A DNA stretch of 6,117 nucleotides from a virus. Lineage: Duplodnaviria; Heunggongvirae; Uroviricota; Caudoviricetes. The notes beneath the pieces are model-generated. The model was not told where the DNA came from and did not search any database. It was given only the letters and a program-made list of their open reading frames with translations. Of this stretch, positions 1,370-5,145 are shown one piece after another; position 1 is the first letter of the stretch; the number at the start of each line of letters is the position of its first letter. The stretch lies in the IMG/VR virus record IMGVR_UViG_2778261389_000007; one strand, given 5' to 3'. Made by a program: the position numbers and the translations under genes.

Positions 1370-1606
1370 TCATCCTGGCTGCTTGCTTTTCATTGAAGCG
1401 ACCCAGGCATCTACAGCCTTTCTGTTATACATGCACTCACTGGAAGGTTTTGGATTCCCGTCAGGTGATACGTGGATATACTCCCTCCCAACCATCCAGC
1501 ACTCTTTTCTGGCCCGGAGGATGGTACCGGGCTTGAGCCCGGTAACCGCGATAAGAACGCTTTCACAAACCCAATCGTTAGGAGCTAACTGAATAACATT
1601 GCTCAT
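1370..1606 (-). CDS. xis: Excisionase-like protein (putative Xis / recombination directionality factor), 78 aa
   Basis: Seen: 78-aa ORF immediately upstream of int on the same strand with a 55-nt gap; ATG at 1606 preceded by GAGGCGGG. Inference: position and size fit lambdoid xis; the basic central segment (KPGTILRARKECWMVGREYIHVSPDG) is consistent with a small DNA-binding excisionase. Family membership not verified. Confidence 0.65.
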   Translation of the reverse strand: MSNVIQLAPNDWVCESVLIAVTGLKPGTILRARKECWMVGREYIHVSPDGNPKPSSECMYNRKAVDAWVASMKSKQPG

Positions 1607-2743: not shown

Positions 2744-2964
2744 CGTGTCGCCTCTCGTTGAATTGTCTTGTAGGCTCGCAACATATCGCGAGATTTTCCG
2801 GACAAAACCGTCTTCATGAAGAACATTCCACTACGGTTTGCAACTATTCCTGGTGTGCAGAGCAGTGTGGCGTCTACCACGCGGTTATGTTTACGGAACT
2901 CAAACACAGTACTGGTGATCACGATGTTCGCTACGGCGCCATAGTCCTGGTATTGGATTTTCAT
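2740..2964 (-). CDS. Hypothetical small phage protein, 74 aa (MKIQYQDYGAV...)
   Basis: Seen: the track ORF extends to 3006, but the in-frame ATG at 2964 forms an ATGA overlap with the upstream gene's stop (2961-2964) and has GGAG about 10 nt upstream; the 3006 ATG has GGTGG directly abutting it with no spacer. The shorter start is preferred. Confidence 0.65.
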   Translation of the reverse strand: MKIQYQDYGAVANIVITSTVFEFRKHNRVVDATLLCTPGIVANRSGMFFMKTVLSGKSRDMLRAYKTIQREATR

Positions 2965-3386
2965 GAAATTGAATCTCCGGCAGTTTCTTTTGTGTAGTTT
3001 TCCCATCCACCATAGCTGTTAACCATTTCGCCCAGCCGCGAGAAGCAAGCATTCATCCATCGGATGCCCCTTGGGGTTAGTGTTGGTACAGTCCCCCAGT
3101 CGATGAAGTCAGAATTACTGCGGTGCATATATTTAATGAGGTCCAGAATGTTGATGTAATGGGCACGGCGTTTTTCCATATCCCATCCCTTATCTTCCAA
3201 ATACGAATCGATAAAGCTCTTAATGGCTGGTTGGTCTAGTGAAATATCCCCGTACTGATGGCGGTACACCGGGCGACGGTGCATGCTGACTAAGTGGAAC
3301 AGGTAGGCATCAGACACCCATATCAGCGCTTGCTGGTGGGCCAGCTCAACAGAGCCAACCGGTACCCAAATTTCATTATTGTTCAC
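2961..3386 (-). CDS. Hypothetical phage protein, about 141 aa (146 aa if the ATG at 3401 is used)
   Basis: Seen: ORF 2961..3401. A GTG at 3386..3384 is preceded by GGGAGGG with a 6-nt spacer and forms a GTGA overlap with the upstream Bro-N gene's stop (3383-3385). The ATG at 3401 would overlap that gene by 19 nt and has only a weak GGTGA upstream. The start is therefore ambiguous; the protein is unrecognised. Confidence 0.65.
   Translation of the reverse strand: MNNNEIWVPVGSVELAHQQALIWVSDAYLFHLVSMHRRPVYRHQYGDISLDQPAIKSFIDSYLEDKGWDMEKRRAHYINILDLIKYMHRSNSDFIDWGTVPTLTPRGIRWMNACFSRLGEMVNSYGGWENYTKETAGDSIS
3332..3339 (+). other. Chi-like octamer GCTGGTGG (RecBCD recombination hotspot sequence), single copy
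   Basis: Seen: exact 8-mer on the plus strand at 3332-3339. Established: this is the E. coli Chi sequence. One copy in 6 kb is roughly the expected background density in enterobacterial DNA, so significance is doubtful. Confidence 0.3.
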
Positions 3387-4141
3387 TGTTGACCCTCCCA
3401 TCCAATCACCTGGAACAGCCCCATCTTAGGGTGATACCACCGGGTGCCTCGAGGTTCAGCTTCAAACATCATTTTGGTGAATGCCGTCATAAATGGCTGC
3501 TCACGCACAATGGTCATGGTGGATTTGGTTCCTCCAGGCGCAATAAATGGGATAGGCTTATGGTCGATGTCATAAGCGGAGACTAACTGGCGACACTTTG
3601 CATCTGAAAGTCCGCACAGTGCTTTCAATTCCGAGTATCCAGCCCAACCAGGAGGCGTTGCACCACGAGCGATATGATCTACTAGCTCGGTAACCTCAAC
3701 GACCTTGTCCTCAACGTGGTTAAGGCGACGCTCCTGCTCAACATTCAGCAGGGCCATTTCGGCAATGATCTCCGCCTGAGATTTAGGGCGTTGGTATCTA
3801 TAGCTGCCAGTTTCGCGGATAGATGGCAGAACATCTTCGCATACCCAGTCTTGTACACGTTCAGCGGAAGCAAGCTGGCTACGGAGAATGAGCCGGTAAG
3901 CATCAGATTCAGACGCAAGTTGCATGCCACGAATTTTGTCGTTAAAACCCAATTCTCGCGATTCGCTATAATTAAGTTTAATCAATGACTTGCAGTGAGT
4001 TTTTAGCGCGTCAGCCGGATTTGCGTAACCCAGGGATTTTGCCAGCTCAACGGCATCAAATACTGGTTTTCCCTGGTAAAGCATCCCGCTCAGAGAAATG
4101 CCGAGATCCGACGAGTTAAATTTCATCAGTTGATTACTCAT
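3383..4141 (-). CDS. Bro-N domain protein (phage antirepressor-like N-terminal DNA-binding domain) with uncharacterised C-terminal domain, 252 aa
   Basis: Seen: the track ORF 3383..4267 has an in-frame ATG at 4141 (MSNQLMKFNSS...) preceded by GGAGGAAG with a 9-nt spacer; the longer form would overlap the next gene by more than 130 nt. Established: the N-terminus carries Bro-N hallmarks (GKPVFDAVELAKSLGYANPADAL ... YRLILRSQLASAERVQDWVCEDVLPSIRETGSY). The C-terminal half, about 135 aa, is unrecognised. Confidence 0.8.
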   Translation of the reverse strand: MSNQLMKFNSSDLGISLSGMLYQGKPVFDAVELAKSLGYANPADALKTHCKSLIKLNYSESRELGFNDKIRGMQLASESDAYRLILRSQLASAERVQDWVCEDVLPSIRETGSYRYQRPKSQAEIIAEMALLNVEQERRLNHVEDKVVEVTELVDHIARGATPPGWAGYSELKALCGLSDAKCRQLVSAYDIDHKPIPFIAPGGTKSTMTIVREQPFMTAFTKMMFEAEPRGTRWYHPKMGLFQVIGWEGQQ

Positions 4142-4418
4142 TGTCTTCTTCCTCCAGTTCCTTTGCTTCTCGTTCGGCAATTGCATCGAGTTCTGCATCA
4201 AGCGATTCGGCCTCGCCATAGGTCGCGATGCGGATAGATTTGAATGCTGGTTCGCTGAATTCAGCATGCCCCTTACAGAGCCCAGCAGTCGCAGAAACTA
4301 CAGCCTCCATTTCGCTACTACTGCCGACAAAGATTGAATATTCGCGGCGCTCGGCATTTTCAGTCACCATGAATGTGACGCAGTACCACGCAGTGATAAG
4401 TTCGTTTTTCATCATCAT
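4134..4418 (-). CDS. Hypothetical small acidic protein, 94 aa, with strongly acidic C-terminal tail (ESLDAELDAIAEREAKELEEEDNE)
   Basis: Seen: ORF with three tandem ATGs at 4418, 4415 and 4412; GAGGT lies 2-3 nt before the first, so the true start is probably the second or third. Its stop overlaps the Bro-N gene start by 8 nt. About 21 acidic against 8 basic residues, by hand count. Confidence 0.65.
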   Translation of the reverse strand: MMMKNELITAWYCVTFMVTENAERREYSIFVGSSSEMEAVVSATAGLCKGHAEFSEPAFKSIRIATYGEAESLDAELDAIAEREAKELEEEDNE

Positions 4419-4423
4419 TTACC

Positions 4424-4930
4424 TCAGTGCAAAATGTGTTGAACGGGTATTGCTTCGCCGACACGTAACCGAACAGCAAGATCCATAAACATCTCGTCGA
4501 GAAAACCGCTGAACCACGAATGACCGTCTTCTTTCAGGCGCTGATCGTTGGCGGAGTAGAACTGGAAGACAGCCAGATATCGCTCCTGTGGTTTTTGCTC
4601 GAGCAGAGCGCCTTCTACGTGTTCAATAAGCAGGTTCTCGATAAGCTCCCGCGTTAAGCCAAAAACAAACTCACCAGTTTTAAACTGGTATTCACCGTCA
4701 CGAAGTCCCCAGCGTTTTTCGCACTCAATCAGGTAGGTAAGGGCGACAGTTCCGCCCATGGAGTGACAAACGGTTTCAGCCCATTCATGCTGCTCTTCAG
4801 TTGTCAGCGTACCTTTGCCGTAACGATTTTCATCGAGCATCCACGCGGGGATGTGCGTACCGGACTGCTCCTGCATTTCTTTCAGTCGGGCAACTAGCTG
4901 CTTTATGTTGTCGTTTTTGTTGGTACTCAT
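4424..4930 (-). CDS. Hypothetical phage protein, 168 aa
   Basis: Seen: ORF with ATG at 4930 in an ATGA overlap with the upstream ORF's stop (4927-4930); GGAG about 10 nt upstream. Mixed composition; no motif recognised. Confidence 0.75.
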   Translation of the reverse strand: MSTNKNDNIKQLVARLKEMQEQSGTHIPAWMLDENRYGKGTLTTEEQHEWAETVCHSMGGTVALTYLIECEKRWGLRDGEYQFKTGEFVFGLTRELIENLLIEHVEGALLEQKPQERYLAVFQFYSANDQRLKEDGHSWFSGFLDEMFMDLAVRLRVGEAIPVQHILH

Positions 4931-5145
4931 CGTTTTAATTCTCCGTTATACGTTTCATGACTCATTACTTCCCAGTTCTTGCCGCCATCGCGGGATAGCA
5001 GCCGCCAGCGCGGATTAACCTTCAGGCTGAGAAATCCGGTGCGTCGCATACGTCGTGCATATACTCGCTTCCGTCGGTATCGCAGCAGGACCTGCATCGC
5101 CTGCAGGTGTACGCGTTCAGGTATTCGAATTGCTGTCAGTGCCAC
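4927..5145 (-). CDS. Hypothetical Arg-rich small protein; start uncertain (GTG at 5145 gives 72 aa, ATG at 5097 gives 56 aa)
   Basis: Seen: ORF whose stop is ATGA-coupled to the downstream 168-aa gene. The N-terminal part is very Arg-rich with rare CGA/CGG codons (RYRRKRVYARRMRR) and overlaps the 3' end of the frameshifted gene upstream; the C-terminal part (SRDGGKNWEVMSHETYNGELKR) looks more protein-like. Could be a small basic nucleic-acid-binding protein, or partly a non-coding frame. Confidence 0.4.
   Translation of the reverse strand: MALTAIRIPERVHLQAMQVLLRYRRKRVYARRMRRTGFLSLKVNPRWRLLSRDGGKNWEVMSHETYNGELKR

Follow-up and report, generated by a model that had tools for sequence, protein, structure and literature searches.

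Background

Few unexplained genes of temperate phages are commoner than those for "antirepressor-like" proteins of the Bro, Rha and KilA types, and only a few of their C-terminal modules, such as KilAC (ANT, PF03374), have an assigned activity. For the AriS-like KilAC regulators, swapping of N-terminal domains on a constant C-terminal domain has been described, and is attributed there to Iyer et al. 2002 (PMC9043618). Here we analyze a Bro-N gene and the small acidic-protein gene directly before it in IMG/VR virus record IMGVR_UViG_2778261389_000007, a 6.1-kb stretch of DNA (6,117 nucleotides) that is referred to in its entirety as the window. In architecture, and probably in its mode of action, the Bro protein resembles the modular antirepressor-type regulators already known; it has a recognizable Bro-N domain and no recognizable KilAC domain. 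Its C-terminal module (hereafter the C-module) is best described, from the modelled fold, as a winged helix that falls in the MerR/excisionase fold class and is uncatalogued. We propose, tentatively, that the two genes form a regulatory cassette of the early operon in which the acidic protein may be an optional modulator.

The likeness to the AriS-like, Bro-N, AntA and Rha regulators that end in KilAC extends to several features. Both groups consist of two modules joined by a helical linker, and in both the N-terminal domain alternates (Bro-N, Rha, AntA-like, KilA-N, ORF6N) on a constant C-terminal one. They also share an early-operon location in temperate phages and the PHROG label "anti-repressor". 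They differ in that the C-module described here is not KilAC, and in that it is not known to inhibit the SOS response, bind a repressor or have any comparable activity.

Acr-Aca loci, in which a small, often acidic gene lies upstream of the gene for a helix-turn-helix (HTH) regulator, provide another comparison. Those loci are anchored by a conserved HTH gene, next to which the small genes vary. The present locus is similar in having a small acidic gene immediately upstream of an HTH-containing regulator in the same operon, but here it is the small gene that is conserved and the N-terminal domain of the regulator that varies. General library searches gave no match to an Aca-type family, no dedicated Aca library having been searched.

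The Bro-N gene and its C-terminal module

The Bro-N gene (3383..4141, minus strand) encodes 252 amino acids (aa). It starts at the ATG at 4141 (MSNQLMKF...), with GGAGG at 4151-4155, 9 nucleotides (nt) upstream, and gene callers chose the same start on near-identical contigs. The mechanically derived open reading frame (ORF), 3383-4267 (294 aa), is too long: its 42 extra codons run through the acidic gene in another frame. A first-pass annotation, made from the letters of the window alone, had placed both genes within 3383-4418 and had recognized a Bro-N N-terminus in the larger product. Both ORFs are real and lie where it put them, on the minus strand, and the Bro-N domain (3806..4141, minus strand; residues ~1-112) is confirmed by a match of residues 23-106 to Pfam PF02498, with an expectation value (E) of 2.1e-15 and a score of 57.5 bits against a cut-off of 25.6. 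PHROGs 130, 2899 and 463, all annotated "anti-repressor", match residues 1-149 (E 2e-38 to 4e-25). Homolog searches found the Bro-N domain of the window joined elsewhere to KilAC and to other C-termini. The closest public sequences, Logan contigs ERR8960408 and ERR14173472, encode a Bro protein that is one residue off (H to Y, in RRLN[H/Y]VEDK), at a listed identity of 100%; the window is thus distinct from both.

The annotators had been unable to place the C-terminal ~135 aa, which was a fair assessment: residues 118-252 have no match in Pfam, NCBIfam or the sequences of the PDB, either alone or as a profile of 29 sequences, and none to a common Bro/KilA-C family among the KilAC, ORF6C, P22_AR_C and T5orf172-type models. 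This part of the protein does match PHROG 6610 (function unknown; E 1.8e-23). Weaker matches fall in the C-terminal parts of PHROGs 1726 and 63, which are annotated as anti-repressors. An AlphaFold2 model built on the 29-sequence alignment has a mean predicted local distance difference test score (pLDDT) of 81.8, rising above 90 over most of the globular part. In order, the model shows a long helix (residues 122-158), a beta-helix-helix-beta-beta-helix arrangement and three short strands, which means that the region that could not be placed would consist of a linker and a winged helix with a beta extension. The helical linker (3668..3778, minus strand), modelled at pLDDT 50-76, may form a coiled coil. 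Variant homologs, which match positions 49-131 only of the profile, have other linkers in its place. The globular C-module itself (residues 165-243; 3413..3649, minus strand) is predicted to comprise a beta-HTH-beta-hairpin wing, a helix and a 3-strand beta extension in which a W-x-H-P-K-M-G-x-F motif is conserved.

The assignment to the MerR/excisionase class reflects a beta-HTH-wing fold that resembles solved members of that class. Sequence similarity to HTH_17, Xis, TorI and AlpA proteins is at noise level: the best profile matches were to HTH_24 (E 0.043, from 2 of the 29 sequences), HTH_17 (E 0.079, from one) and MerR (E 0.21, from one), and a PDB profile search with the C-module returned no HTH family. 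The C-module also differs from MerR and excisionase proteins in its extra helix and motif-bearing extension, and in being always fused behind another DNA-binding domain. KilAC was rejected as an identity, with no match to PF03374 either for the window protein (E <=0.1) or for the 29 members (E <=1), and with an hhalign probability of 0.65% against three KilAC C-termini, for which the template profile is thin. When the C-module fold was searched against BFVD, a single entry reached E 0.001, the Ralstonia phage Eline protein with KilA-N; phage Fnu1 appeared with its KilAC protein at E 0.36.

C-modules 52-82% identical to that of the window were found by homolog searches fused to ORF6N, Rha, KilA-N and an unannotated N-terminal domain, the last corresponding to the N-terminal part of PHROG 1726, which is annotated "anti-repressor". 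These fusions show the C-module to be mobile, swapped by phages among Bro-N, Rha, KilA-N, ORF6N and other N-terminal domains. The family is compact, since an exhaustive search with the C-module recovered only 47 clusters at E <=0.001 among 1.8 billion cluster representatives. Among deposited phage genomes 56 have it, those of Stx-converting phages, phiP27, D6 and APSE being examples, and there the proteins are labelled "DNA-binding protein", "anti-repressor" or "Roi". A recurrent module of Stx-converting and other enterobacterial phages that is missing from Pfam is thereby defined, which provides an annotation handle and a compact domain.

The "Roi" label stands on one phage record, for a protein with Rha and the C-module. 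In the HK022 genome the 16.7 kb at the right-hand end, in which roi lies, shows no C-module similarity; the label does not transfer HK022 Roi biology to the C-module. At several loci a C-module protein is encoded directly after a cro-like gene, in the early-right operon: in Yersinia ruckeri (locus L037, 2742-3762), and in PhiR49_2 and an Stx1 phage (loci L024 and L025, 1908-2902). This is the position occupied by cII in lambda, and as such it hints at a role in the lysis-lysogeny decision.

The small acidic protein

The gene for the acidic protein (4134..4412, minus strand) begins with three consecutive ATG codons. Most members of its family start at the third (MKNEL...), which has GAGG 9 nt upstream, and this start gives a product of 92 aa; a start at 4418 would give 94. 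The first-pass annotation had described a 94-aa protein with an acidic tail. The gene and its tail stand, and the length is amended to the family consensus. The protein has an isoelectric point (pI) of 4.33 and a net charge of -13, most of it carried by the last ~27 residues. Residues 10-64 in the 94-aa numbering (4227..4391, minus strand) form a predicted beta-beta-alpha-beta core, modelled confidently at pLDDT 90-94. The conserved acidic C-terminal tail GEAESLDAELDAIAEREAKELEEEDNE (4137..4220, minus strand) is predicted, at low confidence (pLDDT about 50), to be a weakly amphipathic helix.

The family alignment of 29 sequences has a mean column identity of 78%, with W11, T19, E26, E36, A39, V41, R63, A65 and T66 invariant. 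Pooled over twelve divergent genes, for which synonymous change is saturated, the ratio of nonsynonymous to synonymous substitution rates (dN/dS) is 0.09 in the core and 0.20 in the tail; core and tail are thus both constrained as protein. The family comprises 89 homologous clusters at 90% identity, every member being annotated "hypothetical". Its named members all come from Enterobacterales (Citrobacter, Salmonella, Enterobacter, Klebsiella, Erwinia, Pantoea, Hafnia and others). No family of Pfam, PHROG, NCBIfam or PADLOC matches the protein, tblastn detected it in no deposited phage and no plasmid, and a scan of species-representative genomes yielded a single locus, in Pantoea stewartii. Solved structures searched by sequence gave no match to either the acidic or the Bro protein. 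By these comparisons the acidic protein belongs to no known family, and it offers a concrete and cheap experimental target.

Small beta-beta-alpha-beta folds also occur in T7 Gp2, eL20/LX, PurS and YkzG, but no sequence relationship of the acidic protein to any of them was found. Relative to these proteins it adds a 27-residue acidic helix and sits in a prophage early-left context, and the fold is too common to imply a function. The low pI is shared with Ocr, ArdA, lambda Gam and DinI. DinI uses a negatively charged helix at its C-terminus, with which the acidic helix predicted here can be compared in concept.

Linkage of the two genes

The two genes overlap by 8 nt, ATGAGTAA, at 4134..4141 (minus strand), so that the start codon of the Bro gene lies inside the last two codons and the stop codon of the acidic gene. 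By this overlap the two genes are translationally coupled. Across 11 contexts compared, the junction reads ATGAGTAA, ATGAATAA or ATGATTAA, and the form xAT-GAx-TAA is kept throughout the family, also where the downstream gene differs. The last two residues of the acidic protein are always [N/D/H][E/D]. They are fixed because their codons (xAT-GAx), together with TAA, hold the start codon of the next gene.

Linkage was assessed in 12 distinct contexts drawn from the 89 acidic-family clusters. A C-module gene follows the acidic gene directly, with the 8-nt overlap, in 9/12 of them. Among these nine the C-module is of the canonical or the variant-linker type and the N-terminal domain is Bro-N, Rha-like or unannotated. 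The pair occurs across prophages of the Citrobacter/Salmonella type and of Enterobacter, Klebsiella, Erwinia, Pantoea and Hafnia, and the genes on both of its flanks vary from context to context. Enterobacter asburiae (CP077411.1; locus L004, 3893-5994) carries two cassettes in tandem, each with the 8-nt overlap: an acidic gene with a Bro-N/variant C-module gene (274 aa), then a second acidic gene with an unannotated-N/canonical C-module gene (240 aa).

The same slot can be filled differently. In Escherichia phage SaltyDalty (PP925825.1) a gene of the same length as the 168-aa gene that precedes the pair in the window lies inside the DNA match. It is followed directly by an ORF6N plus KilAC-like antirepressor gene (locus L034, 3296-4413) and a Lar-like restriction-alleviation gene, and the slot is without an acidic gene. 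The cassette slot looks like an exchangeable accessory position.

The pair lies in a run of genes on one strand. All plausible genes of the window are on the minus strand and point toward an excisionase (DUF1233; 1370-1606, minus strand) and an integrase (1-1314). On a near-identical 19-kb contig this block is downstream of a CI-like repressor gene (HTH_3 plus Peptidase_S24), so that the run has the repressor on one side and xis/int on the other, and it adjoins chromosomal genes ~81% identical to the cmoA-cmoB-cutC region of E. coli. The upstream repressor and the divergence of the chromosomal flank indicate that the block is the early-left (pL-type) operon arm of a lambda-like prophage whose host belongs to the Enterobacteriaceae but not to Escherichia. 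Promoter-like and terminator-like sites showed no excess, and between the acidic and Bro genes no internal promoter or terminator stood out above chance.

Possible roles of the acidic protein

The reading that we favor, at a rough probability of 0.45, is that the acidic and Bro genes are a small mobile regulatory cassette of the early-left operon; the acidic protein would then be an optional component that modulates either the C-module or what the C-module acts upon. The Bro protein would be a modular antirepressor-like regulator made of a Bro-N DNA-binding domain, a helical linker of ~40 residues and the winged-helix C-module with its beta extension. Most likely it would bind DNA, a repressor or a host protein early in lytic growth, and such binding could tune the lysis-lysogeny decision or host physiology. 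The acidic protein, translated in a coupled manner with the regulator, may act on either the C-module or its target, be it as inhibitor, timer or chaperone, and would probably do so by means of its acidic helix. The ground for this reading is the structure of the genes, their domain content, the shuffling of modules, the predicted folds, selection and synteny; beyond that it supposes that the C-module binds DNA or protein and that the two proteins are in physical contact, and it assigns them a biological role.

A more specific version, which we consider unlikely, would make the acidic protein a dedicated "anti-antirepressor". Its helix would mimic a nucleic acid or repressor surface and dock on the winged-helix C-module encoded by the coupled gene, giving a self-limiting pulse of regulator activity in early lytic development. 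If true, phage-encoded modulators would gain a new class, one whose specificity is for a single domain and not for a protein as a whole.

Several observations weigh against a functional partnership, and some of them speak for its main rival, that the adjacency is inherited synteny at a mosaic, recombination-prone gene boundary and that the proteins are independent. On that account the 3' end of the acidic gene and the C-module would be homologous "arms" between which N-terminal domains are swapped. In 3/12 contexts (two from Pantoea, one metagenomic) the acidic gene precedes an unrelated gene of 187-191 aa, and the xAT-GAx-TAA junction persists before the 191-aa form. Full-length homologs of the Bro protein, C-module included (74% and 60% identity), exist without an acidic gene in Limnobaculum, where a homolog of the 168-aa gene (33% identity) directly precedes the Bro gene in the same slot, and in Yersinia ruckeri, where the Bro gene directly follows cro. 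None of the 56 phage records with a C-module has the acidic protein. Start/stop overlaps and junctions at gene boundaries are usual throughout this operon, and coupling of the acidic and Bro genes is therefore nothing special. Two acidic paralogs of one prophage, one beside a canonical and the other beside a variant C-module, are nearly alike in the alignment and hence show no visible co-variation with C-module type. The winged-helix part is only weakly basic (net +2), which leaves no obvious charge complement for the acidic helix. The synteny is asymmetric: the acidic gene is nearly always beside a C-module gene, and C-module genes are often alone. Of the candidate host-interference pair put forward in the first-pass annotation, therefore, adjacency and coupling to a C-module gene hold in 9/12 contexts and obligate pairing does not. 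Set against inherited synteny are the survival of the pair through changes of both flanks and of the partner N-terminal domain in many enterobacterial prophages, its duplication as a unit in Enterobacter asburiae, and the occupation of the same slot in SaltyDalty by a KilAC-type antirepressor without an acidic gene. On balance we regard independence of the two proteins as somewhat unlikely.

Other explanations separate or combine the two proteins differently. The annotators had suggested a DNA mimic or anti-restriction factor, in which case the acidic protein would be a stand-alone anti-defence factor and Bro a separate antirepressor. Its pI and net charge suit such a role, as do its orphan status, common among anti-defence proteins, and its probable early expression in an accessory slot that holds the Lar-like restriction-alleviation gene in SaltyDalty. 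The suggestion did not hold up in other respects, with no support from fold, charge layout or distribution. The acidity is packed into a single helix at the C-terminus, modelled with low confidence, and not spread over a folded surface; neither a folded carboxylate surface nor similarity of fold or sequence to a known mimic of the Ocr, ArdA, Gam or Ugi kind was found, and PADLOC, Pfam and PHROG gave no match. We do not think that the protein is a classical folded DNA mimic, and a stand-alone anti-defence role seems improbable. Weaker still, and very improbable in our view, is a toxin-antitoxin-like module with a toxic Bro protein neutralized by the acidic protein encoded upstream. The layout fits, a small acidic gene lying upstream of a larger DNA-binding gene and overlapping it, and BRO/antirepressor genes are listed among toxin-antitoxin-like pairs, some Ant-domain proteins being toxic (Makarova et al., PMC2701414). 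The partner of Bro there is, however, an Xre-type repressor, unlike the acidic protein (PMC2701414). In addition, Pfam, NCBIfam and PADLOC place no toxin or antitoxin domain in either protein, such as a type II module would have, and the pairing is not strict in either direction, as the Bro homologs without an acidic gene and the acidic genes before an unrelated gene show. The least probable alternative is inhibition of host RNA polymerase in the manner of T7 Gp2, suggested by the small beta-beta-alpha-beta fold, a strip of negative charge and an arginine that is conserved in the last strand. Homology to Gp2 was rejected at an hhalign probability of 0.2%. Literature searches on Bro-N and anti-defence, and on Gp2-like prophage proteins, found nothing relevant.

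Should the acidic protein modulate the regulator, as the cassette reading supposes, lysis-lysogeny circuits would gain a further layer of control; otherwise its gene simply joins the other accessory genes of the early operon. Either outcome leaves current understanding in place, and the locus provides a modest lead and a gain in annotation rather than a surprise.

Neighboring genes

The pair is flanked by two backbone genes. Upstream, and outside the cassette, the 168-aa gene (4424..4930, minus strand; PHROG 37204, function unknown; pI 5.1) marks the slot. Downstream is a gene of 141-146 aa (2961..3401, minus strand; PHROG 24826, function unknown) whose probable GTG start overlaps the Bro stop codon (GTGA).

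A gene for a 191-aa protein (locus L003, 4275-4850; L017, 705-1280; L027, 3608-4183) comes after the acidic gene in Pantoea and, in Hafnia, after the Bro gene. The protein has no Pfam match and matches PHROG 3007, labelled "RusA-like Holliday junction resolvase", at E 8e-56. A second match is to a PHROG of DNA polymerase processivity factors (E 4.5e-8), and the protein carries the motif RYYLEGVHI...ATNGHVAL, which resembles sliding-clamp motifs. The RusA label may be wrong.

PADLOC had no matches among nine ORFs of the window. A 72-aa ORF of pI 11.8 (4927-5145, minus strand) matches the ParE-like toxin domain PF24732 of Pfam (E 6e-19, 68 bits). It directly precedes the 168-aa gene and overlaps it by 4 nt, and from this arrangement the two could be a toxin-first toxin-antitoxin-like pair within the same operon. 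The ParE-like gene recurs in related loci (L002, L004, L019, L021 and L032).

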